This document shows, piece after piece, positions 470 to 43,252 of a stretch of DNA of 64,000 bases; position 1 is the first letter of the stretch, and every line of letters begins with the position of its first letter. Made by a program: the position numbers and the translations under genes. The notes below the pieces were generated by a model. It was not told the DNA's origin. It did not search any database and saw nothing but the letters and a program-made list of their open reading frames with translations. The stretch is from Bacillota bacterium. Lineage in GTDB: Bacteria; Bacillota_I; Bacilli_A; RF39; UBA660. The stretch is from NCBI GenBank assembly GCA_015059485.1, contig SVAH01000001.1, positions 66,724 through 130,723 on the forward strand, in the 5' to 3' direction.

Positions 470-500
470 AAAACAAATATAAACTGGTTGGTGTTGATTT
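470..500. repeat. Recombination junction J1 (att-like quasi-palindrome, central TG at 485-486)
   Basis: AAAACAAATATAAAC-TG-GTTGGTGTTGATTT; the left half encodes KTNINW, as in rbgA 42410-42427. Confidence 0.85.
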
Positions 501-655
501 AGTATAACTATTCATGAAACTCCTATAAAATAAGGGAAAACTAATATTTAATAATTACATATTTTAATAAATAATTACTAAAAAATATTAAAAATAACAA
601 AGTATTTAATACTTGGTGTTTACAGTCAAACTTTTAATAAAAAGAGGTGACAACA

Positions 656-1612
656 ATGAAAGAAATGTTAAAATTATTGAATAATTATTTAGTTATAATA
701 AATAGTTCTGTTGAAATATGGCTAGTTTTCAGTTCTTTAGATGAAGATGTATCTATAAAAGATTCTGATTTATTTGAATATTATTCTGATTTTAAACATA
801 TTGATTTGGAACATATTTCAACACATTTAATAAATGCGTGTTTACCCAGTGACAAAATTGAAAGGTTAATTAATGCTTTAAAAATTTTAAAAGAGACTTA
901 TATTAAATATGGTGTTAATAATCTAGATGAGTTATCTTCAAAAATATTAAATGAGTGGAATAATTCTAAGGATTATAGTGATGAATTAATTAAAGATATT
1001 TTATTAATAGAATGCCGCAGTGGATGGGATAAATTACCTAAATCTAATACGTCCTTATTAAAAATATACAAAGATATGGTTGATGGTGATATGATTGTTA
1101 ACCCTAATATTCCAGTTGGTACTTCATCTGAAAGATTATATACAATGTTACCTGATGATGCATCATGTTATAGATATAATTTAAAAGTTATATCTAATCC
1201 AATGATAGATTGGAGTATATATAGAAATGGTAGAAATCCTTTAGAACAGTATTGCGCATTATATAATAATAGTAAAAATGAAGAAGAAAGAAAATATTAT
1301 CATGATTTAATAATAACAGCTATTTTTAGTTCATGTAGTTTATTTAATAATAAATTTGCATGGCATACTAAAGCTCATAAAACTGAAGAGATGATTAATT
1401 ATTATTTATTAGTAGAAAAAAATGAAATAAATAGTAGGCATCATTCTTTAAATGATATTAGTTTTATTAGTGAAATACATGAATTATTATTAAATGATGA
1501 ATTGTTTAATCATCAATTAGAATTATATACTGAAAAGAATGATGATGCTGAAGAAGTAATTAAGGAATTAAAATTATCAAGAGAAAGTGTACAACATAAA
1601 GTGTATTTATAA
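656..1612 (+). CDS. Hypothetical protein (~318 aa), cargo of cassette 1
   Basis: ORF 647-1612; RBS AGAGGTGA favours ATG at 656; no recognisable motif. Confidence 0.75.
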   Translation: MKEMLKLLNNYLVIINSSVEIWLVFSSLDEDVSIKDSDLFEYYSDFKHIDLEHISTHLINACLPSDKIERLINALKILKETYIKYGVNNLDELSSKILNEWNNSKDYSDELIKDILLIECRSGWDKLPKSNTSLLKIYKDMVDGDMIVNPNIPVGTSSERLYTMLPDDASCYRYNLKVISNPMIDWSIYRNGRNPLEQYCALYNNSKNEEERKYYHDLIITAIFSSCSLFNNKFAWHTKAHKTEEMINYYLLVEKNEINSRHHSLNDISFISEIHELLLNDELFNHQLELYTEKNDDAEEVIKELKLSRESVQHKVYL

Positions 1613-1616
1613 GATT

Positions 1617-1779
1617 GCCATATGACCAGGTAACTCTTATGGTTAACTTGGTATTGGATTAGTCTAACTACGATAAATGACTTAAAAATGGACGAAATAG
1701 TAATAAATTTCGTCTTTTTTATGCTATAATTGAATAGAAATGGAGTGATTCCTATGGATAATAAAACTAATATTAACTG
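1617..1779 (+). repeat. Promoter-type right arm, copy 1 (near-identical to 3541-3702)
   Basis: Imperfect inverted repeat, terminator GACGAAAT..ATTTCGTC-T6, extended -10 TGCTATAAT, RBS GGAGTGA, ATG GAT AAT AAA ACT AAT ATT AAC TG. Confidence 0.85.
1691..1720 (+). terminator. Intrinsic terminator in the cassette right arm
   Basis: gacgaaat-agtaataa-atttcgtc followed by a T-run. Confidence 0.65.
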
Positions 1780-1793
1780 GTTGATATTGATTT
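1763..1793. repeat. Recombination junction J2 (central TG at 1778-1779)
   Basis: AAAACTAATATTAAC-TG-GTTGATATTGATTT (preceded by T). Confidence 0.85.
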
Positions 1794-2422
1794 AGTCTGA
1801 GTTTCATTCAAACTCCTATAAAATAAGAAAAAAACAAATATATGCTTGTTACATAATATAATAAGAATATAAAAAATAATGATAAAAATAACTGAAAAAG
1901 TATCAAAAGTAGCATAGTATTTGATACTTGGTATTGACGGTTAAACTATTAAAAACGAGGTGAATGATTATGATTTTAGATGGAGCAGATATAGGATTAG
2001 GTAAAGTAGTTATAACAGACTCACATGCAACAATTAATAATGTTGAAATACCAATAAAATGTGTAGATATATATAGTGAAGATCATATTTATCGTTTCAC
2101 ATTTTGGACTCAACAAGAATATGAAAAATATAATGATTTAGAATTGAATAAAAAAACTAATATTTTAGATCTTATAGATGACTACGATATTGATTTTGGT
2201 ACTAAAGAATATGGTACTATTAATTCAAGAGAAAATACTGAGATGTATTTTACTAGAATAGATACTGATAAATATATTTTAACTGCAGAGATTAAAAATT
2301 TTGAAAATTGTGTGCTTGGAAATATGAAAAATCATAAGAATTTAAAATTAGAAGCTATTATAGATTTTAATGATATAAAAGGAGTTGATCCAAATGAATG
2401 AAAATAAAACTAATATCAATTG
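1780..2422 (+). mobile_element. Single-gene cassette 2 (643 bp)
   Basis: Bounded by J2 and J3; conserved left arm; the ORF stop overlaps the rbgA-like start (ATGAATGA). Confidence 0.75.
1964..2401 (+). CDS. Hypothetical protein (~145 aa), cargo of cassette 2
   Basis: ORF with GAGGTGA RBS (start may be 1970); no family recognised. Confidence 0.75.
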   Translation: MIMILDGADIGLGKVVITDSHATINNVEIPIKCVDIYSEDHIYRFTFWTQQEYEKYNDLELNKKTNILDLIDDYDIDFGTKEYGTINSRENTEMYFTRIDTDKYILTAEIKNFENCVLGNMKNHKNLKLEAIIDFNDIKGVDPNE

Positions 2423-2436
2423 GTTGATATTGATTT
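2406..2436. repeat. Recombination junction J3 (central TG at 2421-2422)
   Basis: AAAACTAATATCAAT-TG-GTTGATATTGATTT. Confidence 0.85.
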
Positions 2437-2601
2437 AGTCTAGCCATTCATTAAACTCCTATAAAATAAGGAAAAATTAATATTTAGTAATTACATATTT
2501 TAATAAATAATTACTAAAAAGTATAAAGAATAGATAAAAAAACTCCAAAAATACCATAGTATTTGATACTTGGTATTGACGGTTAATCTAATATAAAAGA
2601 G

Positions 2602-3540
2602 GTGATTGTTTTGAATTTAATAGATACATTAAATACAAGTTATGAATATGTTTGTGATAACTCCAGAAATGTAAAAATAAATTATGATAAAATTGATGAT
2701 TTAATTGATCAGATTAATAACTCAAAGGTTGATTATTGGTTAGATTCAAATCCATATGGTTTAATGGATATGGATGTAGAAGAAATAATTAATTTCTTAT
2801 TCATATATCATGCAATAGGAGATTATTGCTTTTGGGGAGATCCTAAATGGGAAGTAAAAACAGATCTAGGTGTTATGGATGGGTCTTATGCAATAATGTA
2901 CTTAATACTAAATAGATTTAAATCAAATAATAATTTTGAAATTAGTTTTGATGAATTTAAAGAATTATTAAAAGGAAATGTAACAATTCCATTGTTAAAA
3001 GATAGATATCAAAATTTATTAGAAATGAATAGATTTCTTAAATCTAAAAATAAGTCATTCTATGAATTAATTAAAGAATTAAACATTGATAGTGAATTAT
3101 TTGAATTTATAGTTAATAATTTAGATTATTTTAAAGATATATCTAATTATGGAGGGAAAGAAATACTATTTTATAAAAGAGCTCAATTATTAACTTCTGA
3201 TATTCTACATGTTAGAGAGAAGAAAGAAAATATTGAAGTAGATTATTCTCATTTAATTGGTTGTGCTGATTATAAAATACCTCAAGTTATGAGATGCTAT
3301 GGTATGTTAGAATTCAGTGATAGTTTAGGAGATAAAGTTGATTCTAAAATAGAATTAAAAGAAGGTACTGAAGAAGAAATAGAAATAAGAGCAAATACTT
3401 TAAAAGTAATAAACTATATATATGAAAGATTAGATAAAAAATATTCTCGCATGGATATAAATGATTTTATATGGTTACTAGGTCAAAATAAATCACAAAT
3501 GACTAAATCATATCATAGAACATTAACAAAACATTATTAA
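2602..3540 (+). CDS. Queuosine salvage protein (QNG1/DUF2419-like queuosine-nucleotide N-glycosylase)
   Basis: Motifs YCFW, FYKRAQLLTSD, ADYKIPQVMR, EIEIRA, D.FIW and YHRT match the Q_salvage family; the true start may be TTG 2611. Confidence 0.8.
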   Translation: MIVLNLIDTLNTSYEYVCDNSRNVKINYDKIDDLIDQINNSKVDYWLDSNPYGLMDMDVEEIINFLFIYHAIGDYCFWGDPKWEVKTDLGVMDGSYAIMYLILNRFKSNNNFEISFDEFKELLKGNVTIPLLKDRYQNLLEMNRFLKSKNKSFYELIKELNIDSELFEFIVNNLDYFKDISNYGGKEILFYKRAQLLTSDILHVREKKENIEVDYSHLIGCADYKIPQVMRCYGMLEFSDSLGDKVDSKIELKEGTEEEIEIRANTLKVINYIYERLDKKYSRMDINDFIWLLGQNKSQMTKSYHRTLTKHY

Positions 3541-3702
3541 GCCATATGACCAGGTAACTATTATGGTTAACTTGGTATTGGTTTAATCAAACACGATAAA
3601 TGATATAAAAATGGCCGAAATTGTAATAAATTTCGTCTTTTTTATGCTATAATTGAATAGAAATGGAGTGATTCCTATGGATAATAAAACTAATATTAAC
3701 TG
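3541..3702 (+). repeat. Promoter-type right arm, copy 2
   Basis: Near-identical to 1617-1779. Confidence 0.85.
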
Positions 3703-3720
3703 TTCGATAGGAAATTAGGC
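3686..3720. repeat. Junction J4 = attL of the ICE (central TG at 3701-3702)
   Basis: AAAACTAATATTAAC-TG-TTCGATAGGAAATTAG; similarity to rbgA ends exactly after TG. Confidence 0.8.
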
Positions 3721-3889
3721 AACATTTTTTGAAAACTCCCGTAAAATAAGGGTAAAACAGCCATCGAGTAATTACATTTTTTTAACAAAAGTTGTAAAAA
3801 ATAGCAAAAAATACCCAAAAATACCTCAAAAATGGCATAGCATTTAAGGGGTGGTGTTCGGACGCAACACTTTAAAAAAGCAATTAATA

Positions 3890-3915
3890 TCAGATAGTTT
3901 TATCTGATTTTTTTT
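3890..3915 (+). terminator. Terminator-like hairpin just inside the ICE left end
   Basis: atcagata-gttt-tatctgat followed by T7. Confidence 0.55.
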
Positions 3916-3939
3916 ATGCAAAAATATAGGAGGGTTTTT

Positions 3940-4818
3940 ATGAAAGAGGAAGTTGTTGAATTAAATGTTAAAGACATATCAGATTTTCCAAAACATCCAT
4001 TTAAAATAAATAATGATTTAAATTATGAAGAACTTAAAAATAGTATTATTGAAAGTGGTGTTCTCGTTCCTACAATTGTGAGAAAGAAAGAAGATGGAAA
4101 ATACGAAATGTTATCTGGACATAGAAGAAAGAAAATATGTGAAGAACAGGGTATAAAAAAAATACCATGCATTGTTAAAAATGTTTCTGATGAAGAAGCT
4201 ATCATATTAATGGTAGATTCAAATCTTCAAAGAGATAAAATATTACCTAGTGAAAAAGCACTAGCTTATAAAATGAAATATGAAGCAATAAAACATCAAG
4301 GTAAAACTTCCGACCCATTGGGTTCGAAGTTATCAATCGAAGATATTGTAAAAGACACAAATGATAGTGCAACTCAAATAAGAAGATATATAAGGTTAAA
4401 TTATTTAATTCCAGAATTATTACAGTTAGTTGATGATACAGTTTTAAAAGATAAACGTGCTACTTTAACAATGGGATTAAGACCTGCTGTAGAATTATCT
4501 TATTTATCTAAAGATGATCAAGAACTTGTTTATGAAGAAATAACATATGAAGATTTAACTCCAAGTCATGTTCAAGCAAAAAGAATAAGAGAACTTGGAG
4601 AAAAAGGCGAATTAGACTCAGATATACTTGAGTCTATTTTTTTGGAACAAAAACCTAATCAAGCTAAAAGATTATCTTTTAATGAAGAGAGAATAAGAAA
4701 AGTATTACCTAAAGATATTAAGGATTATAAGATTGAAGATTTTATAATAAAAGCAATTGAGAGTTATTCTAAGACACTCTCCAATGAAAGGGGTGATTCA
4801 TATGATTTAGATATTTAG
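3940..4818 (+). CDS. ParB/RepB/Spo0J family partition protein
   Basis: HPFK, YEMLSGHRR, MVDSNLQR and IRRYIRL motifs; RBS AGGAGG before ATG 3940. Confidence 0.85.
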   Translation: MKEEVVELNVKDISDFPKHPFKINNDLNYEELKNSIIESGVLVPTIVRKKEDGKYEMLSGHRRKKICEEQGIKKIPCIVKNVSDEEAIILMVDSNLQRDKILPSEKALAYKMKYEAIKHQGKTSDPLGSKLSIEDIVKDTNDSATQIRRYIRLNYLIPELLQLVDDTVLKDKRATLTMGLRPAVELSYLSKDDQELVYEEITYEDLTPSHVQAKRIRELGEKGELDSDILESIFLEQKPNQAKRLSFNEERIRKVLPKDIKDYKIEDFIIKAIESYSKTLSNERGDSYDLDI

Positions 4819-4873
4819 CACCCTACAATATTTATTTATTTTCTATTATTATTTTAGTAAGAGGTGAAGAAGA

Positions 4874-5497
4874 ATGAAAAAAGTTATAATTAGCTTTATC
4901 ATTTTGTTTCTTATTGCTTCAGGATTCTTAACTTATAAATATGTATTTATGAGAAATAAAGATGAGAAAAAGCCAGTAGTTAATACTACAGTTATTGAAT
5001 CAAAAGTTGATTCAGAAGAAATGGAGGAAGAAGAAAATGAACCTATTACAGAAAATAATAAAACTAATAATGATATTGTTAAAAACGACAGCATTAATGA
5101 CAATAATGCTAATTCGAACAATATGGAGAGCAATAATGTTCGTAACTCTAATGTCGTAAAAGAAAATTCAATAACTAATAATGTGAAAAAAGAAGAGCCA
5201 AAACAGGAATCTGCTCCAGTTCAACAACCAGTAGTACAACCTGAACCAGAACCACCAAAACATGAACCAACAGCATGGGAAAGCTTAGGAATAAGTGAAT
5301 ATGATTATTATCATTCACCAATGTGGAGTTGGGCTAGAGTTGATTATAAAATTGAAGATTATGGAACATTTGATGCTACACATCAAGCTTGTATTGATGC
5401 TGGATATCAATTAGAAGATATAATTAGTTTTTCTTGTACAAACATTAATAGTTATTCGGGTGCTTATTTAGGGGATATGCTCAGAATAAAAAAATAA
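4874..5497 (+). CDS. Membrane-anchored surface protein with N/E/P-rich linker
   Basis: N-terminal TM segment, low-complexity stalk, small C-terminal domain with two Cys. Confidence 0.7.
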   Translation: MKKVIISFIILFLIASGFLTYKYVFMRNKDEKKPVVNTTVIESKVDSEEMEEEENEPITENNKTNNDIVKNDSINDNNANSNNMESNNVRNSNVVKENSITNNVKKEEPKQESAPVQQPVVQPEPEPPKHEPTAWESLGISEYDYYHSPMWSWARVDYKIEDYGTFDATHQACIDAGYQLEDIISFSCTNINSYSGAYLGDMLRIKK

Positions 5498-5513
5498 TGA
5501 AAGGAAAAATGAT

Positions 5514-8297
5514 ATGAAATCAAAATTATTTAAGTATGCTATGATGAGCATGCTTTTTATTTTGTCTATTTTTGGCATAACAGAAGTACATGCTGAACAA
5601 TACACTGGACAAGCAATCTGGCCTAGTGAATATATTAGTAATATCTATATTAAAAAAGATAGAAATGATGGTTATTCAAAATGGCAACAAGCAAGATTTA
5701 TTAGAAGAAGTGAAGATAATAAATTCGTTTATTGTTTACAACCATATACTGATATAGATAATAACTTACCTTATTATGATGTAATAAGAGAAGACTATGA
5801 AAGAGTATTAGGGTTTAGTGAAGCACAATGGGAAAGAATATCTTTACTAGCTTATTATGGATATCAATATGACCAAAATGGATATAATCATAATGATCAA
5901 AAATGGTATGCTATTACTCAAGTTATGATTTGGAGAACAACAAATCCTGAATCAAATATCTATTTTACTGATACTTTAAATGGTAATTATACATCTAAAT
6001 TTGATGGTGAAATAGCTGAACTTGAAAGCTTAGTTGCAAATCATTATAAAAGGCCACAATTACAAAGTGGAGTTGTTGTACCAATTGGAAGTACAACTGA
6101 AATGAATGATACTAACGGTGTATTAAGTAATTTTAAAATTACTTCTACAGATAAAGTATCAGCAACTATTAATGGAAATACTTTATCAGTAACTGCAAAT
6201 AGTATTGGTGAAGGATCTATTACTTTTGAAAAGAAAGCTACTAAGTATGAAATACCACCAATTGTTTATTTTAGTAATCATTCACAAAATGTATTTAGAG
6301 TTGGTAATTTTGACCCTGTATTAAGTAAATTTACTTTAAAGGTTATAGGTGGAAGAGTAACACCAACTAAAGTTGATGTTGAAACAAAAACAAATACTCC
6401 TCAAGGTGAAGCTAAATTAGGTGGAGCTGTATATGGTATTTATAAAGTTGATGGAACTAGAGTTGGGTCTGTAACTACTAAAGATGATGGAACAAATACA
6501 TCAGATTATTTACCTGAACTTGGTAGATTCTATTTATTAGAAGAACAACCATCAGAAGGTTATTTATTAGATAGTAATAAATACTATTTTGAAATAACAG
6601 AGAATAATTTAAATCCTACTGTGCAAGTATTTGAGCAAGTAATCAAATTAGATTTTGAATTTACTAAAGTGTATGCTAGTGCTGAAACTCAAATAATGGA
6701 ACCAGAAGTAGGTATTAAATTTGGAATTTATAATAATAAGAATGAACTTGTAAAAGAAATAACTACAGATTCACAAGGTGTATTTAGATTTACTTTACCA
6801 TATGGTACTTATACTGTTAAACAATTAACAACAACTAAAGGTCATGAAAAAATTGACGACTTTAATGTTGAAGTAAAAACTACAGGAGAAGTAGTTAAAA
6901 AAGTTATTTCAAATGCTCCAATTACTGCCAAGTTAAGAGTTGTTAAAATTGATTCTGAAACTAAGGAAGTAATAAAGAGAAGTAATATTAAATTTAAAAT
7001 ATTTGATGTTAAAAACAATGAATATGTATGTCAAACAATTACATATCCAACTAAAGAAACTATCTGTGTTTGGGAAACAGACGAAGATGGTGAATTTACA
7101 ACAGCTTATCCTTTAATGACTGGAACTTATAGACTTGAAGAAGTTGATCAAGTAATTGATGGCTATTTATGGAATAGTCAATCTCATGAATTTACAATTG
7201 ATGAAGATTCTAATTTAAGAACTGACTCAGAGTATGGAATAATATTCGATACTGATTTTGAAAACACTAGAGTAAAAGGTGAAATCAAAATTGAAAAAAC
7301 TGGAGAGGTTGCTGAACTTACTGAAAATGGATTTGAATTTAAAAATCAACCATTAGAAGGAGTTAAATTTGGTTTATATGCTAAAGAAGATATAGTATGG
7401 AATGGTAATACAATTTATACAAAAGATTCTTTAGTAACAGAAAAACTTACTGATAGTGAAGGTAAAATAGTATTTGATGAATTATATCTTGGTAAGTATT
7501 ATGTAAAAGAAATTGAAACATTAGATAATTATGTTTTAGATGAAAATACATATGAAGCTGAACTAGTATATAAAGATCAATATACACCAACTATCTTCTA
7601 TTCAGAAGCTTTATTAAATGTATTAAAAACTGGTAAACTAGAATTTACTAAAACTGATATGTCTGAATCTAAAACTCTTCCAAATACACTAATCGAAATT
7701 TATACAGAAAATGATGAACTAGTATTTAGTGGAAGAACTGATGAAGAAGGTAAAATTGTTATTGAAAGACTTCCTCAAGGAAAGTATTATATTATTGAAA
7801 AGGAAGCACCAGAAGGATACAAACTTAATGAAGAAAAAATGCCATTTGAAATTAAAGAAAATGGTGAAGTAATTAAATCAACTATGAAAGATGAAGACAT
7901 AACTGGAACACTTGAATTTACAAAATTAGATTTTTCAAATGATAATCCACTTTCAAACACTTTAATTGAAATATATAATGCTGATACAGATGAATTAGTA
8001 TTCTCTGGAAGAACTGATGATAATGGAACAATTACTATAGAAAAATTAAAATATGGTAAATATTACATTTTAGAGAAAGAAGCACCAGAAGGATATGAAT
8101 TAAATCCTGAAAGAATGTATTTTGAAATCAAAGAAGATGGAGAAATTGTTAAATCTGTAATGAAAGATAAACAAATAGTTAAAGTACCTAATACTGAAGA
8201 AAATGATTATAAAGAATTATTATTTAGTGGAATTACTTTACTAGTTTGTGGAGCAGGTGTAATTATTTATGGAATCAAAAATAAAAAGAAAAAATAA
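5514..8297 (+). CDS. Cell-wall-anchored adhesin with Cys-Gln thioester (TED) domain and SpaA/Cna-B-type repeats
   Basis: Signal peptide; VYCLQP and YAITQVMIW (TQxxIW) motifs; repeated EKEAPEGY modules; VPNTE sorting motif followed by TM and basic tail. Confidence 0.8.
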   Translation: MKSKLFKYAMMSMLFILSIFGITEVHAEQYTGQAIWPSEYISNIYIKKDRNDGYSKWQQARFIRRSEDNKFVYCLQPYTDIDNNLPYYDVIREDYERVLGFSEAQWERISLLAYYGYQYDQNGYNHNDQKWYAITQVMIWRTTNPESNIYFTDTLNGNYTSKFDGEIAELESLVANHYKRPQLQSGVVVPIGSTTEMNDTNGVLSNFKITSTDKVSATINGNTLSVTANSIGEGSITFEKKATKYEIPPIVYFSNHSQNVFRVGNFDPVLSKFTLKVIGGRVTPTKVDVETKTNTPQGEAKLGGAVYGIYKVDGTRVGSVTTKDDGTNTSDYLPELGRFYLLEEQPSEGYLLDSNKYYFEITENNLNPTVQVFEQVIKLDFEFTKVYASAETQIMEPEVGIKFGIYNNKNELVKEITTDSQGVFRFTLPYGTYTVKQLTTTKGHEKIDDFNVEVKTTGEVVKKVISNAPITAKLRVVKIDSETKEVIKRSNIKFKIFDVKNNEYVCQTITYPTKETICVWETDEDGEFTTAYPLMTGTYRLEEVDQVIDGYLWNSQSHEFTIDEDSNLRTDSEYGIIFDTDFENTRVKGEIKIEKTGEVAELTENGFEFKNQPLEGVKFGLYAKEDIVWNGNTIYTKDSLVTEKLTDSEGKIVFDELYLGKYYVKEIETLDNYVLDENTYEAELVYKDQYTPTIFYSEALLNVLKTGKLEFTKTDMSESKTLPNTLIEIYTENDELVFSGRTDEEGKIVIERLPQGKYYIIEKEAPEGYKLNEEKMPFEIKENGEVIKSTMKDEDITGTLEFTKLDFSNDNPLSNTLIEIYNADTDELVFSGRTDDNGTITIEKLKYGKYYILEKEAPEGYELNPERMYFEIKEDGEIVKSVMKDKQIVKVPNTEENDYKELLFSGITLLVCGAGVIIYGIKNKKKK

Positions 8298-8880
8298 GAG
8301 CTGGTTAATTATAATCGGCTCTTTAATCTTTCTTAGTGGTGTTGGATTAATAACATATGATTATTTATCTAATAGCAAGGTAGATAAAAAAGAAACTGAA
8401 TTGTTAGAAGAATTCTATGAAATAGAAGAGGAAATTGAATCTATAGAAGAACCTCAAGTAGTAGAAGAAGTAAAAGAACAAATTAAAGTTAATTATATTG
8501 CTGTACTTAAAATTCCTAAAATTGGTTTAGAAAGAGGTTTAGTAGATCCAAATAATTATCTTAATAATGTTAATTATAATTTAGAATGGTTAGATGGCTC
8601 ATCTATGCCAGATGAAATAAATGGTAATGTAATAATTGCTGGTCACTCTGGTAGTGCAAGAATATCTTATTTTAGAAAATTGGATAGATTAGAAATAGGT
8701 GATGAAGCTTCTATCATCTATAATGGTAAAACCTATAATTATAAAGTAGTAGATATTTATGATGTTGAAAAAACTGGTAAAGCAGAAATAGTTAAAGAAA
8801 AAAATACTACAACTTTAACATTAATTACATGTAGGCATAATACTAATAGACAGATAGTTGTCATATTTAAACAATTCTAA
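8269..8880 (+). CDS. Sortase
   Basis: N-terminal TM, IIAGHS, TLITC..R catalytic motifs. Confidence 0.9.
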   Translation: MESKIKRKNKSWLIIIGSLIFLSGVGLITYDYLSNSKVDKKETELLEEFYEIEEEIESIEEPQVVEEVKEQIKVNYIAVLKIPKIGLERGLVDPNNYLNNVNYNLEWLDGSSMPDEINGNVIIAGHSGSARISYFRKLDRLEIGDEASIIYNGKTYNYKVVDIYDVEKTGKAEIVKEKNTTTLTLITCRHNTNRQIVVIFKQF

Positions 8881-8936
8881 TTTTGCACAATATTTATTTA
8901 TTTTTATAATGTTATAATCTTTAATGAGGTGGTTTT

Positions 8937-9398
8937 ATGCAACGATTCTTTGATTATTCAAAAGGTAAAGTAGATAAAAAGAATAAAGATAGAATTGTCT
9001 TTATAAATAGAATGGCTATGCTTATGCAAGAATTCGAAAGTTCTAGTCCTGAAATAAATGAATTAGTTAATTGGTTATTTTGTAAATCTGAAGGAGTTCC
9101 TTATCTTGATTCTGATATGCAATGTGTATGTAATATAAAATTAGAACCACTTAAATGGCTAGATAAAAAAAGAGTAATTAAAGAGGTATGGGAAAATGAT
9201 GTTCATTTATATTCTTATGCATTGATGTTGCATGATTTAAACTATTGGACAAATAATGATGTTCTAAACGAAATTATTACAGAAATGTATTTTAGATTAG
9301 ATTATTTAATACATCCTTATGAAGAAGAACAACACGATAGAGATTTAGAAGATATAAGATATTTTATAGAATTTGATTATGTAGATGAGGAGCAATAG
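8937..9398 (+). CDS. Hypothetical protein
   Basis: ORF with GAGGTGG RBS. Confidence 0.7.
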   Translation: MQRFFDYSKGKVDKKNKDRIVFINRMAMLMQEFESSSPEINELVNWLFCKSEGVPYLDSDMQCVCNIKLEPLKWLDKKRVIKEVWENDVHLYSYALMLHDLNYWTNNDVLNEIITEMYFRLDYLIHPYEEEQHDRDLEDIRYFIEFDYVDEEQ

Positions 9399-9426
9399 CT
9401 CTTTTTATTTTGAAAGGTGGTTTATT

Positions 9427-10227: not shown

Positions 10228-10445
10228 AAAATATAGAAGAAATTAAACTGATGGAAATTGAAGCTTTAAGTGATTTTGAAGATCATATAGGAATAGTTTT
10301 ATCTGATATGGATATTTTTAGAGAATATCTAGATAAAAAAGAATTAAAAAAATTTAATAAATGTTATGACTATTTAGATAATCTTTGGGAAAAGGTAGAA
10401 AATATCATAGCAAAAATAAGTGATGCTGATGAAAGAGGTAAATAA
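10224..10445 (+). CDS. Hypothetical protein
   Basis: ATGA overlap with the upstream gene. Confidence 0.65.
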   Translation: MKNIEEIKLMEIEALSDFEDHIGIVLSDMDIFREYLDKKELKKFNKCYDYLDNLWEKVENIIAKISDADERGK

Positions 10446-10446
10446 T

Positions 10447-10731: not shown

Positions 10732-10845
10732 AAGTATTTTTTTTTATTGAAAGGTGGTGGTTCTATAGAGTAAAAAAATTCAGGAATAGTCAACTGAATT
10801 AAATAAAATGGCTAAATATTTGATTTATAGAGGGAGGAAATTTAA

Positions 10846-33589: not shown

Positions 33590-33619
33590 TATCTCACCAC
33601 CAGTCCTTAAGTTTAATAA
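33585..33619. repeat. 35-bp inverted repeat (partner 34703-34737) spanning the hsdS RBS and start codon
   Basis: TTATTAAACTTAAGGACTGGTGGTGAGATAATGAA present in both orientations. Confidence 0.9.
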
Positions 33620-33688
33620 AAAGTTACTAACTTAACTAATAATAATTATATCACACTTTTATCGATTTTGAACATTATAAAAAGTATT

Positions 33689-34654
33689 TCAAATACTTTC
33701 TTGAAATACTTTGCATATCATATCAATACATTTTTTCTTTTGAGATAATCTAGGATGTACATATAGGTTTAATGTTATATTAACATTAGCATGACCTAAT
33801 AACTCACTTACAGTCTTATAATCCACACCTAAAGAGATACAATTTGTGGCAAATGTGTGTCTTAATGAATGAAAATTAAATTGTTTTATTTTGACTTGTT
33901 TTAATACTTTGTTAAAGTATTTTCTATATGTTCTTGGTTCAAGATATTTACTTGAACCAGTAATTATATAATCGTCACCTTTAGTTTTAAGTTTTTTTAA
34001 TAATTCTAAAAATTCTTTGTTAATAGGTATTTCTCTATTAGCATTTTTTGTTTTTGGAGTTGTTATTATCACTTTAGAAACATTATTATCTTTATCTTTA
34101 ATATAAACTCTTTGGATTGTTTTATTTACAGATAATATATTCTTTTTGAAGTCTATATCATTCCATTGTAATGCACATAATTCACCAATTCTAAGACCTG
34201 AATATAAGGATATTAATAATCCTATATTTCTATTAGTTAAGTTTTCTAAAACATAATTTGTAAGTTTGTTTTGTTCATGTTTTGATAGGATATATATTTT
34301 TGAATCTTTATTATCTTTTGGATAATTAAAAGTCAATTCAAAATGTCTTATTTTTTCTTCATTTATTGCTTTTCTCAAACTTCCTTTAATAATGATTGTT
34401 ATATCCTTAATTGTTTTTTCAGATAATCCACCAGATCCATCTTTTCTTCCATTTTTAAATAGATTTAAAAGAAAATCTTGAATAGTTTTATGATTTAAAT
34501 CTTGAATATAGATATTTCCTAGATTAGGAATTATATGATTGAAAATATTATTTGAATAATTAGCATATGTTGATTCTTTTATATATTCTTTCTTATCAAT
34601 CAACCATTCATAAATCCAATCACTATATAAAATCTTATTTTTTTTAGCAAACAT
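33689..34654 (-). CDS. Tyrosine recombinase (hsdS invertase)
   Basis: SGLRIGE, PKT, HSLRHTFAT and LLGHANVNITLNLY motifs. Confidence 0.92.
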   Translation of the reverse strand: MFAKKNKILYSDWIYEWLIDKKEYIKESTYANYSNNIFNHIIPNLGNIYIQDLNHKTIQDFLLNLFKNGRKDGSGGLSEKTIKDITIIIKGSLRKAINEEKIRHFELTFNYPKDNKDSKIYILSKHEQNKLTNYVLENLTNRNIGLLISLYSGLRIGELCALQWNDIDFKKNILSVNKTIQRVYIKDKDNNVSKVIITTPKTKNANREIPINKEFLELLKKLKTKGDDYIITGSSKYLEPRTYRKYFNKVLKQVKIKQFNFHSLRHTFATNCISLGVDYKTVSELLGHANVNITLNLYVHPRLSQKKKCIDMICKVFQESI

Positions 34655-34732
34655 ATAATATTCCTCCTTTCCAAAGAAATATTATAGTTGTTCATTATCT
34701 CATTATTAAACTTAAGGACTGGTGGTGAGATA

Positions 34733-35878
34733 ATGAATGTTCCCAAAATAAGATTTAGCGAATTTACTTCTGAATATAAAAAATATAAATTTAAAGATGT
34801 AGCTACATTGTATAGAGGAAGTTCACCAAGACCAATTATTAATTTTATAACTAAGTCTGATGATGGAGTTAATTGGATAAAGATTGGTGATGTTAATGAA
34901 AATGATACATATATAAATAAAACAAGTGAAAAAATCACAGTTGAAGGTTCAAAAAAATCTAGAAAAGTTTATAAGAACGATATTATTTTATCTAACTCAA
35001 TGAGTTTTGGAAGACCGTATATTTTAAATATTGATGGATGTATTCATGATGGTTGGTTCGTAGTTAGAGATTATAATGAAAAATTAGTTCAAAAATATTT
35101 ATATCATTTTATGTCTTCTCCAGTTATTCAAAAACAATATAAAAAATTATCTGCTGGTGGAGTTGTAAGTAATATAAGTAGTGATTTAGTTTATAGCGTT
35201 GATATAAATATTCCTTCAAAAGAAGAACAAATTAAGGTTTCCAATTTTCTATCACTTATAGATAAAAAAATAGAATTACAATCTAAGAAAATTGAAGACC
35301 TTAAGTTATTTAAAAAAGGATTAATTCATCAAATGAAGAAGAATAGTAATAACTGGTCTGAATATAAAATATCTGAAATATTTAAAATTACTAGAGGAGT
35401 AGTAATTCCTAAAACTGACTTATTAGATAATAAAACTACAAAATATCAATATCCAGTTTATTCATCTCAAACATCTAATAATGGAATTCTAGGTTATGAT
35501 ACAAAGTATGATTTTGATGGAAAATATTTAACGTGGACTACAGATGGAGCTAATGCTGGGAAAGTGTTTTATCGTAATGGAAAATTTAGATGTACTAATG
35601 TTTGTGGTGTTTTGTACAATGATAATAACAAATATGTTGATGAGTTAACAGCTGAACTCTTAAACTATGAAACACCAAAACATGTGTCTTATGTAGGTAA
35701 CCCTAAATTAATGAATAATGTTATGGGAGATATTAAAATTTTTCTACCTGATAGTAATGAATCTCATAGGGTAAGTAATATATTATTAGTAATAAATAAT
35801 AAAGTTTTATTAGAAACTGATAAGTTAAATAAATTAAATAAACTAAAAAAAGGACTTATGCAAAATATGTTTGTATAG
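34733..35878 (+). CDS. hsdS: Type I R-M specificity subunit S (allele B)
   Basis: MNVPKIRF start with GGTGGTGA RBS; two TRDs; ends KKGLMQNMFV. Confidence 0.9.
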   Translation: MNVPKIRFSEFTSEYKKYKFKDVATLYRGSSPRPIINFITKSDDGVNWIKIGDVNENDTYINKTSEKITVEGSKKSRKVYKNDIILSNSMSFGRPYILNIDGCIHDGWFVVRDYNEKLVQKYLYHFMSSPVIQKQYKKLSAGGVVSNISSDLVYSVDINIPSKEEQIKVSNFLSLIDKKIELQSKKIEDLKLFKKGLIHQMKKNSNNWSEYKISEIFKITRGVVIPKTDLLDNKTTKYQYPVYSSQTSNNGILGYDTKYDFDGKYLTWTTDGANAGKVFYRNGKFRCTNVCGVLYNDNNKYVDELTAELLNYETPKHVSYVGNPKLMNNVMGDIKIFLPDSNESHRVSNILLVINNKVLLETDKLNKLNKLKKGLMQNMFV

Positions 35879-37717: not shown

Positions 37718-37921
37718 TATATGTAGTGGTTTGCAGAGATTGGAAGTGGTCTTTATGGAACTAATTGTATATATGAAGATGATGTATTTATCATCGATAC
37801 AAAAATCTATAGAGTCCTTCGACCCTCTAAAACCGAGTTTAAGAATTAAAATAGAAGAGAAGTAGTAGCTTTTATTAATTGGCCATTATTTCTCTTCTTT
37901 TTAATTTAATGGGGGATGCAT

Positions 37922-38353
37922 ATGAAATTATTGAGTTTAAAAGAACTAGATATGTTCGACTATGTGAAGACTAAAGAAAAGGTAGAAGCATACATCGGTG
38001 ATTTAAACATGATAAAGTACAAATATAGGAATGTTCTGCCCCCTCCAATCGCTTCACGACTATTTGATATTAAAGTTCAATCTTCGCCAACAAATAGATC
38101 TGGTATTGAATCTTATGTTGAGAAAAGGGATGAATACAATAGAGAATATAAGCAAAAACTCAACGAGATATATGAAATAATTGAAGATTTTTCATATTAC
38201 GAAAAAAGATTCTTTAAAGACTATTTTATTAATGGGGTCAAATTGCGTAATTTTGAGAAAGAATTTGCTTGTGGTGAAAGAATGGTCGATCATATAAAAG
38301 AAAGCTCAATAATCAAATTTGCACTTGCTACAGATTTAGCAGTATATAAATAA
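37922..38353 (+). CDS. ArpU-like (phage-type) transcriptional regulator
   Basis: KTKEKVE N-terminus, ESYVEKR, C-terminal HTH ending KESSIIKFALA. Confidence 0.6.
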   Translation: MKLLSLKELDMFDYVKTKEKVEAYIGDLNMIKYKYRNVLPPPIASRLFDIKVQSSPTNRSGIESYVEKRDEYNREYKQKLNEIYEIIEDFSYYEKRFFKDYFINGVKLRNFEKEFACGERMVDHIKESSIIKFALATDLAVYK

Positions 38354-38374
38354 AATCACTTCGGTGATTTTTTT
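38352..38374 (+). terminator. Intrinsic terminator
   Basis: aaatcac-ttcg-gtgattt followed by a T-run. Confidence 0.75.
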
Positions 38375-38415
38375 TATTAGGAAAAAGTTAATTGTTGTAA
38401 GAAAGGAATATATTT

Positions 38416-38559
38416 ATGATAGGTAAAATTTTAGGAATCATATTTTTAATATTAATAGGATTATTTACTATATGTTCTTGTAAAGTAGCTGATTGGGCTG
38501 ACCAAGAAATGGAAGAAGAATTAAAAAGGAGAGAGCAAGATGAAAAAGAAAACATATAG
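38416..38559 (+). CDS. Small membrane protein (47 aa), not in the ORF track
   Basis: AAAGGA RBS; MIGKILGIIFLILIGLFTICSCKVADWADQEMEEELKRREQDEKENI. Confidence 0.6.
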   Translation: MIGKILGIIFLILIGLFTICSCKVADWADQEMEEELKRREQDEKENI

Positions 38560-38743
38560 AGCGATAATAGATAATGATGGACATATTACAACAATGATTG
38601 TTGGTGGTGAGAGTAAGAAATCAGTTACAAAAGAGTTAACTGATTTTTTTATTAAAACGAAACAAATAAAAGATTATAGAAGATTTGATATTCATCTAAA
38701 AGAAGTAATGTATATAAATGGTGAATACAAAACTATTGAATAG
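38540..38743 (+). CDS. Hypothetical protein
   Basis: AGGAG RBS. Confidence 0.6.
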   Translation: MKKKTYRAIIDNDGHITTMIVGGESKKSVTKELTDFFIKTKQIKDYRRFDIHLKEVMYINGEYKTIE

Positions 38744-38751
38744 GTGATTTT

Positions 38752-39018
38752 ATGAAGATAGCAAAATTAAAAGAAAAACTTAAGAAGTATGAAAATATAC
38801 CATTATCAGAAATTAATATTAATGATGTTGATGAAATAACGGATATAAAGATCAATAAAAGAAAATCAAGTAATGATAGAATACTTGATTTTTTAAATAC
38901 AGTAAAAAATCCATATGTTTTTAAACATAATGGGAGATTAGTTCGAATTGGTTTTGCTGATACAAATATAACAGCAGATGAATGTATAACTAATGTACTT
39001 AAAAATCTATATAGATAA
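38752..39018 (+). CDS. DUF6870-like small protein preceding the serine recombinases
   Basis: RILDFLNTVKNPYVFK..VRIGFA pattern and position. Confidence 0.65.
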   Translation: MKIAKLKEKLKKYENIPLSEININDVDEITDIKINKRKSSNDRILDFLNTVKNPYVFKHNGRLVRIGFADTNITADECITNVLKNLYR

Positions 39019-39083: not shown

Positions 39084-40784
39084 ATGGCTGGTAGAGGTAA
39101 GAAAAAACTTAGTACAAATTCTACTGTTGCTAATTGGCTAGTAGGTATTTATACAAGAAGATCTTTTGATGATAATGAAGATAAAGAATCTAATACTATT
39201 ACAAATCAAAAAGAAATGATTAATAGTTTTATATCAAAAGAAAAGAATATGACAATAGTCGATTATTATGTTGACGATGGATATACTGGTACTACATTTG
39301 ATAGACCAGGATTTCAAGAGATGATGAAAGATATATCTGATGGAAGAATTAATACTATTATAGTAAAAGATTTATCTAGATTAGGAAGAAATAGTCTAGA
39401 AGTAGGTAAATATATTGAAGAGATATTTCCTATATATAATATAAGGATAATAGCTATTAATGATAATGTGGATTCGTTTAAAAGGCCAGAATCTATAAAT
39501 GATTTAATGGTTCCAATTAAAAATTTAATAAATGAAAGTTATGCCAGAGACATATCTAAAAAAGTTTCTTCTGCTTATTATACGATGGCTAGCAATGGTA
39601 AGTATGTAGCTGGTACTTCTCCTTATGGTTATACATTTGATGAGAATGATAAACATCATCTTGTAGTTGATCCAGATGAAGTTGAAATTGTTAGATTAAT
39701 ATTTAATATGGCATTAAAAGGTGATGGCAGAGTTAAGATAACAAAATATCTAAATGATCATAATATTTTATGTAGAAAAGAAATACAGCGAAGAAAAAAG
39801 TATAAATTATCATTAGAACCATTAGAAGAAACAATTAAGTATAAATGGTCAACTTCTACAATAGGAAGAATGTTAACAAGTGAAATATATATAGGTAATT
39901 TAACTCAATTGAAAACGAAAAGAGAAAGTTTTAAAAATCATAAAGTAATAAATGTAGCAAAAGAGGATTGGGTAAGATTTGAAAAAACACATGAACCTAT
40001 TATAACAAAAGCTGATTTTGATAAAATACAAGGCTTAATTAAAGTAAATGCTAAAAGATTATCAAATACTGGAGAAAGAACATATTCAATATATAATGGT
40101 GTTTTAAAATGTGCTGATTGTGGTAGAGCAATGTATAAACAAGAAGACAAAAGAGGAAATCGCCAGCTATCAAATTATTTCTGTAATACATATTTATATA
40201 TAAGCAAAACTTCTTGTAGCTCACACAAGATAAAAACGGATGATTTAAATGATATTGTTTTAGAATCCGTGCAATTACAAGTAAAGTTAGTAATTGAATT
40301 AGATAGAAGTTTAAAAAGACTGTTTTTTAAAAATAATAGAGAAACAGTTGAAAGCGAATATAAAAACAATACTAGAATAGCAGAAATAAAGATAAATAAT
40401 TTAAAGAATAAAAAAATTCAATTATATGAAGATTGGAAATTCAATAATATAGATAAAGATGAATTTATAAATCAATCTAAACTTATTGAAGAAGACATTA
40501 AATTAGTTGAAGAAAAGCTAGAATTAATAACTAAAACATATAGGGATAATATAAAAATGATTAAAAGAAATGATTATTGGATAAATCATTATAGAAGAAA
40601 TAAAAAAATAAAAAAACTAACTAGAGAAGTTATAAAAGAATTAATTGATGTTATTTATATAACTGCTGATGGTAATGTAGATATTCGTTTCAAGTATAGC
40701 AATGAATATAAAGAGTTAGTAACATACTTAGAGAATGAAGGAGCTGTTAAGAAATGTCAAAATGGAGAGTTGGTATTTACTTAA
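39084..40784 (+). CDS. Large serine recombinase 1
   Basis: YTRRS (catalytic Ser), DDGYTGTTFDRP, KDLSRLGR, recombinase domain, Zn ribbon CADC, coiled coil. Confidence 0.93.
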   Translation: MAGRGKKKLSTNSTVANWLVGIYTRRSFDDNEDKESNTITNQKEMINSFISKEKNMTIVDYYVDDGYTGTTFDRPGFQEMMKDISDGRINTIIVKDLSRLGRNSLEVGKYIEEIFPIYNIRIIAINDNVDSFKRPESINDLMVPIKNLINESYARDISKKVSSAYYTMASNGKYVAGTSPYGYTFDENDKHHLVVDPDEVEIVRLIFNMALKGDGRVKITKYLNDHNILCRKEIQRRKKYKLSLEPLEETIKYKWSTSTIGRMLTSEIYIGNLTQLKTKRESFKNHKVINVAKEDWVRFEKTHEPIITKADFDKIQGLIKVNAKRLSNTGERTYSIYNGVLKCADCGRAMYKQEDKRGNRQLSNYFCNTYLYISKTSCSSHKIKTDDLNDIVLESVQLQVKLVIELDRSLKRLFFKNNRETVESEYKNNTRIAEIKINNLKNKKIQLYEDWKFNNIDKDEFINQSKLIEEDIKLVEEKLELITKTYRDNIKMIKRNDYWINHYRRNKKIKKLTREVIKELIDVIYITADGNVDIRFKYSNEYKELVTYLENEGAVKKCQNGELVFT

Positions 40785-42322
40785 GACTATCATCTGATGA
40801 CGATGATGATAAATTAGAATCAAATAGTATTACAAACCAAAGAAGTTTAATTAACTATTATTTAGTTGATAAAAAAGATATAACTGTATATAAATGTTAT
40901 GCAGATGATGGATATACAGGAACTGATTTTGATAGACCAGGATTTCAAGAGATGATGGACGATATTAGAAATAGAAAAATAAATTGTGTAATTGTAAAAG
41001 ATTTATCTAGACTAGGAAGGAATTATATTAGTGTAGGTCATTTTATAGATGATACACTACCAAGATATAAAATTAGATTTATTGCAATAAACGATAATGT
41101 GGATTCGTTTAAAAGGCCAGAGTCTATGAATTCATTGGAAGTATATTTTAAAAATCTAATGAATGAAAGTTTTGCTAAAGATATATCAAAAAAAGTTAGA
41201 ACATCATTTGAAATAAGTAAGAAGAATGGAAACTTTATAGGAGTAGTAGCTCCATTTGGGTATTTAAAAGATCCTTATGATTGTCATAAATTTATTATAG
41301 ATAAAGAAGCCGAAAAAATTGTAAAGAAAATATTTAAACTTGCTTTAAACGGAATTAGTAGGCAGGATATAGCTAATGAATTAAATAATAGTCATATTCC
41401 AACTCCAAGTAAATATATGAAAAGTTTTTGTAAAAAAAAGTCATCAATAATTTTAGAAGAATGGAATGTTGATTCAATTGATAATATACTAAAAAATAGA
41501 ACTTATATTGGAAATTTAATTCAAGGTAAAACAACTAGAATAAGTCATAAAAAACATAACATTGTAACTGTTCCAGAAGATGAATGGATAGTTGTTCCAG
41601 ATCATCATAAAGCTATTATAGAAGAAGAAATATTTGAGCAAGTTCAAAATATCATATATAATCGTAATTCAAGAGTTAGTTCAAATGGTAAGTTCTATAA
41701 ATATACAGGTTATTTAAAATGTGCTGATTGTAATTCTACTATGAAAAAATTCAGTCGACCAAATAGCAATAGTATATTCTTTTATTGTAGTACATATATA
41801 AAAAATAAAGAATGTCATAAACATTACATTACTGAAAATGATTTGGATAATACATTGTTAGAAATTATTAATAAGTATATCGAAGTAATAACAAATCTAT
41901 CTGAAAAGATAAATAATAATATATCTATGTCATATATGGAATACGAAAAAGAGAATAAAGAATTTAAATTAATTGAATTAGATAAAGAAGAACAAAAATA
42001 TAGAAAGCTAATTAATGAGGTAAAAGATGATTATAAGAATGATTATATATCTAAGGGTGATTATGAATTATTTAAAGATAAATATATGTTTCAATTAAAT
42101 AAAATTTTGTTAGAAATAGAAGAATTAAATAATAGTAAATCAAATCAAGAAAATATTGATCGAATCAATAAAATCAAAAAGATAGGAAAGATAGATTATA
42201 TAGATAGAAATATAATTATAGAATTAATTGATAGAATTCTAATACATGAATGTGGAGACATAGAAGTTATTTTTAAATATAAAAATTTATACGAAGATGC
42301 TCTTAGGTATCTCAAATCATAG
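40754..42322 (+). CDS. Large serine recombinase 2
   Basis: YLRLS, DDGYTGTDFDRP, KDLSRLGR and Zn ribbon CADC. Confidence 0.93.
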   Translation: MSKWRVGIYLRLSSDDDDDKLESNSITNQRSLINYYLVDKKDITVYKCYADDGYTGTDFDRPGFQEMMDDIRNRKINCVIVKDLSRLGRNYISVGHFIDDTLPRYKIRFIAINDNVDSFKRPESMNSLEVYFKNLMNESFAKDISKKVRTSFEISKKNGNFIGVVAPFGYLKDPYDCHKFIIDKEAEKIVKKIFKLALNGISRQDIANELNNSHIPTPSKYMKSFCKKKSSIILEEWNVDSIDNILKNRTYIGNLIQGKTTRISHKKHNIVTVPEDEWIVVPDHHKAIIEEEIFEQVQNIIYNRNSRVSSNGKFYKYTGYLKCADCNSTMKKFSRPNSNSIFFYCSTYIKNKECHKHYITENDLDNTLLEIINKYIEVITNLSEKINNNISMSYMEYEKENKEFKLIELDKEEQKYRKLINEVKDDYKNDYISKGDYELFKDKYMFQLNKILLEIEELNNSKSNQENIDRINKIKKIGKIDYIDRNIIIELIDRILIHECGDIEVIFKYKNLYEDALRYLKS

Positions 42323-42328
42323 AAATTA

Positions 42329-42426
42329 TGGTATAATTGATTAGTAAAGTTACTTACAAAAAAGGGAGTGATTTCTATGAGTAATACAAACGAAAATCAA
42401 AGTGTTGCTAAAACCAATATCAACTG
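42329..42426 (+). promoter_or_regulatory. ICE right end supplying the rbgA promoter, RBS and N-terminus; attR at TG 42425-42426
   Basis: TGGTATAATTGA, GGAGTGATTTCT-ATG..AAAACCAATATCAAC-TG; parallels the cassette right arm (TGCTATAATTGA..GGAGTGATTCCT-ATG). Confidence 0.8.
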
Positions 42427-43252
42427 GTATCCAGGCCATATGGCTAAGACAAGAAGACTAATAGCTGAAAAATTTAAATTAATAGATATAGTATATGAAT
42501 TAGTAGATGCTAGAATACCTTATTCTTCTAAAATAAAAGATATTTATAAAATAATAATGGATAAGCCTAGAATAGTTATTATGACAAAAAAAGATTTATG
42601 TGATATGAAGATAACTAATTATTGGGTATCTTATTATGAAAATTTAGGTGCTAAGGTTATTTTAGTTGATCTTAATAATAATGAAGATTATAAAAAAATA
42701 ATTGAAGTAACTCATGAGCTTATGGATAATTTAAATATTAAAAGAGCAGAAAAAGGAATGCAAAAAAGAAATATTAGGGCGTTAGTAGTTGGTATACCAA
42801 ATGTAGGTAAATCTACATTAATTAATAAAATGGTTGGAAGAAAAGTAGTTGATACAGGAAATAGACCTGGAATTACTAAAAGTTTAACATGGTTAAAAAC
42901 TAATAGTGATATTGAATTACTTGATACACCAGGTATTTTATGGCCTAAATTAGATGATGGTAATGTTGCACTTAATCTAGCTGCAATGACTGCAATTAAA
43001 GAAGAAATACTTCCAATAGATGAAGTGGCTATTCATATACTTAAAATGTTACATGATTTTTATCCAAATATATTATTTGAAAGATATGGTATAAAAAAAC
43101 TTGACGATTTAGAGGAAGTTTATGATATAATTGGAAAGAAAATTGGTGCTTATAGGAATAATGAAACAGATTATGAAAGGGTTTCTACCTATATTGTAAA
43201 CGATATGAAGCAAGAATATATTAAAGGAGTAACATTTGATAGAAAGATATGA
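42377..43252 (+). CDS. rbgA: Ribosome biogenesis GTPase RbgA/YlqF
   Basis: INWYPGHMAK, DARIP, GIPNVGKS and DTPGILWP motifs. Confidence 0.97.
   Translation: MSNTNENQSVAKTNINWYPGHMAKTRRLIAEKFKLIDIVYELVDARIPYSSKIKDIYKIIMDKPRIVIMTKKDLCDMKITNYWVSYYENLGAKVILVDLNNNEDYKKIIEVTHELMDNLNIKRAEKGMQKRNIRALVVGIPNVGKSTLINKMVGRKVVDTGNRPGITKSLTWLKTNSDIELLDTPGILWPKLDDGNVALNLAAMTAIKEEILPIDEVAIHILKMLHDFYPNILFERYGIKKLDDLEEVYDIIGKKIGAYRNNETDYERVSTYIVNDMKQEYIKGVTFDRKI

Follow-up and report, generated by a model that had tools for sequence, protein, structure and literature searches.

Mobile units at the rbgA locus

The window analysed here, i.e. the whole stretch of 64,000 nucleotides (G000:C4:66724-130723, G000 being the genome analysed), carries an integrative and conjugative element (ICE) and a series of small gene cassettes, all inserted head to tail at the 5′ end of the gene rbgA (ylqF). 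The ICE occupies positions 3703-42426 of the window on the plus strand (38,724 bp) and directly adjoins the Trp codon of rbgA. The rbgA gene (42377-43252, plus strand) was recognized by TIGR03596 (323 bits; cut-off 208), with residues 15-288 covering model positions 1-276; the conserved core of RbgA starts at residue 15, and the TG dinucleotide of the junction lies within Trp17. We assigned the element to the ICEs on the basis of a type IV secretion system (T4SS) ATPase, a coupling protein, a relaxase and an integration module, all located between the left and right attachment sites (attL and attR). The conjugation module, encoded on the plus strand, comprises a VirB4-type ATPase (13592-16054), a MobL relaxase (18372-19649) and a T4SS-DNA_transf coupling protein (20732-22729), while two large serine recombinases, SR1 and SR2, are encoded at the rbgA-side end.

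The units in the window are delimited by five aligned junctions, and all of them were found where the first-pass annotation had placed them, on the plus strand and each ending in TG: J1 at 470-486 (AAAACAAATATAAACTG, TG at 485-486), J2 at 1763-1779 (AAAACTAATATTAACTG, TG at 1778-1779), J3 at 2406-2422 (AAAACTAATATCAATTG, TG at 2421-2422), J4, which is the attL of the ICE, at 3686-3702 (AAAACTAATATTAACTG, TG at 3701-3702), and attR at 42410-42426 (AAAACCAATATCAACTG, TG at 42425-42426). A search of the window with the 17-nt junction motif allowing up to two mismatches gave six matches, compared with 0.95 expected from shuffled sequences, none of which reached six. The one match beyond the five junctions (1449-1465, minus strand) was attributed to chance. 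The 31-mer proposed in the earlier annotation occurs exactly at J2 and with two mismatches at J3; by direct reading J1 has four mismatches to it, which is why it was missed by a search allowing three. J1-J3 are quasi-palindromic, and at J2 direct reading of the two arms around the TG showed pairing at 11 of 14 positions.

Upstream of the ICE the cassettes form an array that extends 10.7 kb beyond the window. It has, in addition to attR, 18 co-oriented junctions (C4:56009 to C4:70425), which bound 17 small units of 431-1872 bp. The main open reading frame (ORF) lies on the rbgA strand in all 17 units, and 16 have a single main ORF. Outside the window, the locus L011 (G000:C4:56009-66723) holds thirteen more cassettes and the native upstream region of rbgA. 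The first junction of the array follows this native region and the start MNENKTNINW, and the genes flanking the beginning of the array encode a GDSL lipase and proteins of unknown function. Four neighbouring junctions in this part (C4:57699, 58464, 58989 and 59624) share a rare spacer between the ribosome-binding site (RBS) and the start codon, GTTGATAGGG.

The window itself opens with the end of cassette 14 (1-486, starting at G000:C4:66350), whose Peptidase_S51 ORF (1-465) is open at its 5′ side and which ends in J1. Cassette 15 (487-1779) has a cassette-type left end, an ORF of 321 aa with no family match (647-1612) and a right end of the long type, in which a hairpin and T-run (1690-1715) are followed by TGcTATAAT, an RBS and ATGGATAAT; J2 closes the cassette. 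Cassette 16 (1780-2422), ending in J3, carries an ORF of 145 aa, also with no family match (1964-2401), and a short-type right end. Cassette 17 (2423-3702), ending in J4, carries a Q_salvage ORF (2602-3540) and again a long-type right end. All four are on the plus strand.

The left arm of the ICE (plus strand) reads TTCGATAGGAAATTAGG from position 3703, and its right arm is AAAACCAATATCAAC plus the TG ending at 42426. By direct reading the last 104 bp of the ICE (42323-42426) supply the new 5′ end of rbgA: they hold TGgTATAAT (42329-42337), a GGGAG RBS, the ATG (42377-42379), 16 replacement codons and the arm at 42410-42424. The TGgTATAAT reads as an extended −10 box of a putative promoter. 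A promoter scan flagged nothing within 42323-42426; in this AT-rich DNA such scans returned fewer promoter-like sites than in shuffled sequence. At the opposite end, a non-coding module (3703-3915) is homologous to the left-end module of about 150-200 bp found in cassettes, with AAACTCCnnTAAAATAAGG and, further on, TAATTACAT in the alignment. The homology between the left ends of cassettes and ICE covers about 200 bp.

Some features of this left-end module deserve mention in their own right. In the ICE (3703-3915) and in many cassettes (for example at 487-646, 1780-1963 and 2423-2601) it is conserved and contains a short palindrome, CCTTAT-aaa-ATAAGG, and variants of it; some cassettes lack the non-coding module. 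RNAalifold gave no consensus structure for the module, a hairpin scan scored it slightly above shuffled sequences (mean 5.85 vs. 5.22, a weak difference), and no Rfam family was matched at E ≤0.01 in L011, which takes in 13 of the 17 cassettes as well as the flank upstream of them.

Cassette arrays and their exchange between genomes

Arrays of this kind are not confined to the genome analysed. The junction motif was found without mismatch in 32 of 401 genomes of the family, representing 26 of 214 genera, and a reversed control motif gave no hits. Up to 12 copies per genome were seen, always co-oriented within a contig. In four genomes (G054, G062, G330 and G336) the array adjoins rbgA with no ICE in between. 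A scan of species-representative genomes yielded at least 192 junction stretches; among the matches listed, the titles of the metagenome-assembled genomes name Bacilli, Erysipelotrichaceae, Tenericutes and Bacillales bacterium, mostly from ruminant gut and some from human.

To describe how units are shared, we compared 188 junction-centred records in all 17,578 pairs, of which 2,475 were dropped as ambiguous and 15,040 share neither side. This left 63 informative pairs between species: 25 share the left unit only, 37 the right unit only and a single pair shares both, so that sharing is one-sided in 62 of 63. The right arm goes along with the unit to its right, with an identity of 0.96 against a background of 0.66. 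Two genera share one cassette with 96% identity over 665 bp, and its neighbours are unrelated on both sides.

Stacking was also seen outside the window. Two ICEs lie in tandem in G181, and in G059 an element with a recombinase is followed by cassettes. The sites between these stacked elements bear out the earlier proposal that attR is itself of the attB type and that the junctions between units are of the attP type.

Results of these comparisons have to be set against a different origin of the arrays, namely that the cassettes are remnants of traffic of ICEs and integrative and mobilizable elements (IMEs), akin to cis-mobilizable elements (CIMEs), and that the arrays are reshuffled mainly by homologous recombination, slippage or gene conversion at the junction repeats of about 45-60 bp. 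This would fit the homology of the left ends of cassettes and ICE, the arrays of G062 and G330, where no serine recombinase was matched, and decayed junctions such as the one with a TA core in G336. It would fit also the behaviour of the spacer (−45 to −19 from the TG, in the junction loci L107-L298). Its variants GATCCAA, GACTCTC, GAGTGGG, GATAGGG and TAATACT swap independently of the flanking cassette bodies, even at the host-side first junction of related genomes, and the four neighbouring cassettes of G000 share one rare variant. Yet, sharing between species breaks at the junction in all informative pairs except one and the right arm follows the right-hand unit, the small units of G000 are all co-oriented and 16 of the 17 have a single main ORF, and mini-elements and ICEs that do carry recombinases use exactly the same site. 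We thus regard remnants reshuffled in this way as a rather improbable account of the arrays as a whole, and retain site-specific insertion of individual units as the more probable process.

Crossover site and ends of the ICE

The first-pass annotation had proposed that the identity shared by the five junctions stops at the TG, which would mark the crossover. On the right-hand side, the sequence following the TG is GTTG... in J1-J3, TTCGATAGG in J4 and GTATCCAGG in rbgA. Since J1-J3 have TGGT in common with rbgA, only J4 sets the limit of identity at the TG. On the left-hand side, the arm of J4 matches the ICE's own right arm except at −4 and −10. Taken alone, the five junctions therefore confine the crossover to AACTG and no further; the narrower placement at TG drew its support from other copies of the units.

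The base following the TG is T in the ICE of the window and A in the related ICE of G240. The same ICE left end was found in two further metagenome contexts, reading CCATTTCG-TG-TTCGATAGG (L102) and ATATAAAT-TG-TTCGATAGG (L103), so that this ICE has been seen behind three different left neighbours. Its own right arm ends in ATCAAC-TG, while L102 (...TCG-TG) and L103 (...AAT-TG) differ from it at −1; if the right arms of these copies match it, the exchange must have taken place on the right-hand side of −1. The left junction of the ICE in L102 may have no more than the TG in common with the right arm. Of 53 junctions collected by anchoring only on the left-hand sequence, 52 retain the TG; the base at −1 is C in 34 and T in 19, that at +1 is G in 49, C in three and T in one, and all 53 have T at +2. 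Dyad symmetry, calculated over 58 junctions from nine arrays, has its peak (0.62) with a 2-nt gap placed on the TG, with all other axes at 0.51 or below. Over these copies, identity appears to be needed only at a central, non-palindromic dinucleotide lying on the dyad axis.

The right end of the element was examined in the same manner. Related ICE right ends from different host genera were compared in eight pairs; identity was 92-100% in the 300 bp leading up to the TG and 66-72% in the 300 bp that follow. These independent comparisons agree with the boundaries that had been read from the junctions, and support TG as the crossover dinucleotide and 3702/3703 and 42426/42427 as the ends of the ICE.

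A cut displaced from the TG, either by a few bases within the shared left arm or, for cassettes, at GG or GT within TGGT, would be compatible with the AACTG interval obtained from J4 and attR, with the G at +1 (49/53) and T at +2 (53/53) that most cassette junctions share with rbgA, and with the observation that the base at −1 is linked to neither of the neighbouring cassettes. It is hard to reconcile, in turn, with L102 and L103, which depart from the ICE right arm at −1, with four cassettes and two ICE types that depart from rbgA at +1, and with a dyad axis centred on the TG; one clade of enzymes is also unlikely to cut ICEs and cassettes at different positions. We consider such a displacement unlikely. 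A crossover 5′ of the RBS was rejected, as the spacer is not carried along with the right-hand unit (0.67 vs. 0.63 background).

The occurrence of the ICE was also followed in sequencing runs. Coverage of window positions 1-10000, of which the ICE makes up a share of 0.63, was 0.53-0.64 in eighteen runs from 10 studies and 0.97 in two others. The eighteen runs thus probably contain the ICE part of this segment and no more, in agreement with the left boundary of the element; that the ICE turns up almost unchanged in runs from 10 further studies suggests recent spread.

In a scan of the 401 family genomes for the ICE left end (up to three mismatches), only G143 and G326 gave matches. The one in G143 (G143:C1:831055, L299) is an ICE-type left end, TG-TTTGATAGGAAATTATGCAAC, on a small unit immediately preceded by a serine recombinase gene fragment and a junction. 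The other (G326:C7:66202, L300) matches the ICE left arm at 20 of 23 positions; it sits within a coding region that is unrelated, lacks a junction arm on its left side and was rejected as a chance match.

Recombinases of the ICE and its relatives

SR1 (39084-40784, plus strand, 566 aa) and SR2 (40754-42322, plus strand, 522 aa) are encoded by overlapping genes and are 38% identical to each other. Each has the Resolvase, Recombinase and Zn_ribbon_recom domains (PF00239, PF07508 and PF13408), all above cut-offs. The best solved relative of both proteins is the catalytic domain of TnpX. In SR2 the segment YLRLSSDDD aligns with YERLSRDDD of TnpX, and SR1 has YTRRSFDD at the same place; the serine of the RLS motif is the nucleophile of TnpX. 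An assignment to the Ccr recombinases was tried and rejected, as SR1 and SR2 score 94 and 92 bits for CcrB (cut-off 900) and 69 and 56 bits for CcrA (cut-off 700).

Matches to SR2 (E ≤1e-60) were found in 206 of the 401 family genomes. Genes with at least 53% identity to it number 13, and every one lies at the rbgA-side end of an element; 12 of these adjoin the rbgA Trp codon, and the remaining one, in G181, adjoins the left end of a second ICE, which in turn adjoins rbgA. The SR1-SR2 pair is present in nine further family genomes. Remoter and shorter relatives (39-46% identical, about 410-530 aa) adjoin the same rbgA codon in G202, G083 and G097, and in G059 a relative of this class sits within an array.

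Integration by a tyrosine recombinase, as in the Tn5253-type ICEs at the 5′ end of streptococcal rbgA, which use the same target gene and restore its coding sequence in the same way (PMC4701971, PMC8571831), can practically be dismissed, since the one tyrosine recombinase gene of the ICE (33689-34654) lies inside a type I restriction-modification locus between inverted hsdS copies and not at an end of the element, the identity between left junction and right arm can be just TG in L102, and the recombinases at the ends of the elements are serine enzymes in every relative examined.

One peculiarity was noted at the rbgA junction in G118 (L068, G118:C21), where the codon following the ICE right end is TGT (Cys) and not TGG (Trp) in an otherwise normal rbgA. 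This may be a polymorphism or a sequencing error.

Proposed mechanism of integration

As far as can be judged from sequence comparison, the site, the boundaries of the units, their stacking and the sharing of cassettes one at a time between species are established. With good confidence we propose, in addition, that a clade of TnpX-like large serine recombinases targets the start of rbgA, and that units insert at the TG, rebuild rbgA and stack upon one another. In this model the left arm of the site would be formed by the codons K-T-N-I-N (AAAACnAAYATnAAY), the 2-bp crossover by the TG of the rbgA Trp codon, and the right arm by the conserved G-TAT-CCA-GGn-CAT-ATG. The mobile units would be the 38.7-kb ICE and cassettes of 0.4-1.9 kb, each bringing at its rbgA-side end an RBS, a start codon and a copy of the left arm, in some cases with a promoter. 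Integration at the TG would then rebuild rbgA and regenerate an adjoining site of the attB form, and the far junction would take on the attP form (left arm, TG, left end of the element). Repeated use of the site would give units stacked head to tail.

SR1 and SR2 are the likely catalysts of this reaction, which may well be reversible with no helper protein, as for TnpX and TndX, and cassettes that carry no recombinase would be moved in trans. The model predicts AAAACCAATATCAAC-TG-TTCGATAGG as the junction of the ICE circle and AATATTAAC-TG-GTATCCAGG as the empty site left by excision of the ICE. Mobilization in cis of the cassettes bounded by J1-J3 together with the ICE, as put forward in the first-pass annotation, is possible on paper.

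Several observations weigh against this proposal. The proposal gives no reason for the presence of two recombinases rather than one. The right ends of the L102 and L103 copies of the ICE lie off-contig, and the left limit of the crossover assumes that they match the right end of G000 and G047. A search of the assembly with the arm motif returned only the array sites, attR and one off-array match (one mismatch), with no contig of the attP form or with an empty site, and a scan of viral contigs for the ICE left end gave no match. In the array-bearing genomes G062 and G330, both 93% complete, no match to the Resolvase domain was found. Furthermore, agreement at position −1 is 0.40 in pairs sharing the left unit and 0.35 in pairs sharing the right unit, against a background of 0.50, and is thus linked to neither side, while the identity of the spacer between RBS and start is 0.81 and 0.67, respectively, against 0.63. 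As spacer and position −1 do not travel cleanly with either unit, a second process reshuffles the 45 bp to the left of the TG, and conversion or slippage between the repeated junctions must act as well.

A broader extension of the model would treat the start of rbgA in these uncultured gut Bacilli with small genomes as a platform for gene capture by serine recombinases, comparable to an integron, at which single cassettes are inserted, excised and exchanged between genera at the Trp TG, with recombinases provided in trans from ICEs and mini-elements. Since attR has the attB form and attL the attP form, such a platform would have no built-in direction and rbgA would never be disabled. We lean slightly towards this extended view.

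Comparison with known systems

In a manner similar to integrons, the arrays described here consist of co-oriented, mostly single-ORF cassettes drawn from a very diverse pool and shared one at a time between species, and the contents of the cassettes are similar too (GNATs, small unknown proteins and methyltransferases). Unlike in integrons, there is no IntI and there are no attI or attC-type sites; the junctions consist of a mimic of the rbgA start and its inverted copy. The recombinases belong to a different class, do not reside beside the array and had no match in two of the array genomes, and insertion occurs inside a coding sequence.

An architectural parallel is offered by the staphylococcal cassette chromosome (SCC, including SCCmec, with CcrAB at rlmH) and the Enterococcus cassette chromosome. 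These elements use a pair of large serine recombinases and insert at the end of a conserved housekeeping gene; SCC elements each carry a copy of that gene end, and units with and without recombinase stack in tandem. The architecture of the window resembles such composite SCC islands. It differs from them in its target, which is Trp17 at the 5′ end of rbgA rather than the 3′ end of rlmH, so that promoter, RBS and start codon are replaced, in its units, which are mostly single-gene cassettes of 0.4-1.9 kb accompanied by a carrier that is, as predicted from its genes, a self-transmissible ICE, and in its enzymes, SR1 and SR2 being far below the CcrA and CcrB cut-offs.

Accretion of CIMEs, known from ICESt1 and ICESt3 of Streptococcus thermophilus, likewise places att-flanked, non-autonomous elements beside an ICE with which they share sites, and makes cis-mobilization possible on paper. 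The non-autonomous units next to the ICE of the window share att sites with it in the same way. CIMEs, in contrast, involve tyrosine integrases and one or a few elements, as opposed to 17 single-gene units here.

With regard to the enzymes, the nearest systems are Tn4451/Tn4453 (TnpX) and Tn5397 (TndX) of clostridia, which also rely on large serine recombinases, the TnpX catalytic domain being the best solved match of SR1 and SR2. Elements of the Tn4451/Tn5397 type use a GA dinucleotide. The TnpX target is said, in the title of one study, to resemble the joint of the circular form, which would match the attB-like attR and attP-like attL described here. Unlike these elements, the ICE of the window has two paralogous recombinases in tandem, a fixed site in an essential gene whose start is replaced, and long arrays. 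TnpX and TndX were reported to integrate and excise without accessory factors (PMC2475636).

The same target gene is known from Tn5253/Tn5252-type ICEs of streptococci and enterococci, which insert near the start of rbgA and restore the coding sequence by a duplicated segment (PMC8571831, PMC4701971). These have tyrosine integrases and attB duplications of 17-84 nt (PMC4701971), as opposed to serine recombinases and an obligatory identity of 2 bp here, and no cassette arrays are described for them in the parts of these papers available to us.

Literature searches turned up no account of cassette arrays at rbgA that involve serine recombinases, and the system seems to be undescribed in print. 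The window adds its missing piece, i.e. an intact ICE with the likely recombinase pair on top of an array of 17 cassettes, in which the att sites are resolved to the single base. An essential gene would here serve as a reusable landing site to which each incoming unit supplies a new start, indicating a way in which genes may pass between genera of uncultured gut Bacilli. The predicted attP and attB and their central dinucleotide are ready for a plasmid recombination assay, and site-specific large serine recombinases with defined sites are useful as integration tools.

Accessory genes of the cassettes and the ICE

The cassettes of the array encode three GNATs, a HAD hydrolase, a SAM methyltransferase, an ADP-ribosylglycohydrolase, a DUF3841 protein, and an HTH protein with a CAAX protease, in addition to the Peptidase_S51 and Q_salvage proteins and several unknowns. 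When 21 cassette ORFs were searched for defence genes with PADLOC, only a methyltransferase domain and an HTH domain were matched.

In the ICE, the region of maintenance and conjugation genes (3916-22729, plus strand) encodes, besides the conjugation proteins named above, a ParB_N protein, a thioester/SpaA adhesin, a sortase, SSB, a T4SS pilin-like protein and an M23 hydrolase. Just 5′ of SR1, at 37916-39018, there are small ORFs that include one of 145 aa with a weak ArpU-like match (E 6e-4, below the cut-off) and one for a DUF6870 protein of 88 aa; these are possible regulators or helpers of recombination. Cargo genes at 22902-26848 encode an AMP-binding enzyme (573 aa) and a hybrid histidine kinase with a receiver domain (716 aa). 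A further cargo region (27445-35878) is the type I restriction-modification locus, with hsdR, hsdM and hsdS copies on both strands. The arrangement of hsdS copies on both strands around the tyrosine recombinase gene looks like a phase-variable switch of specificity.

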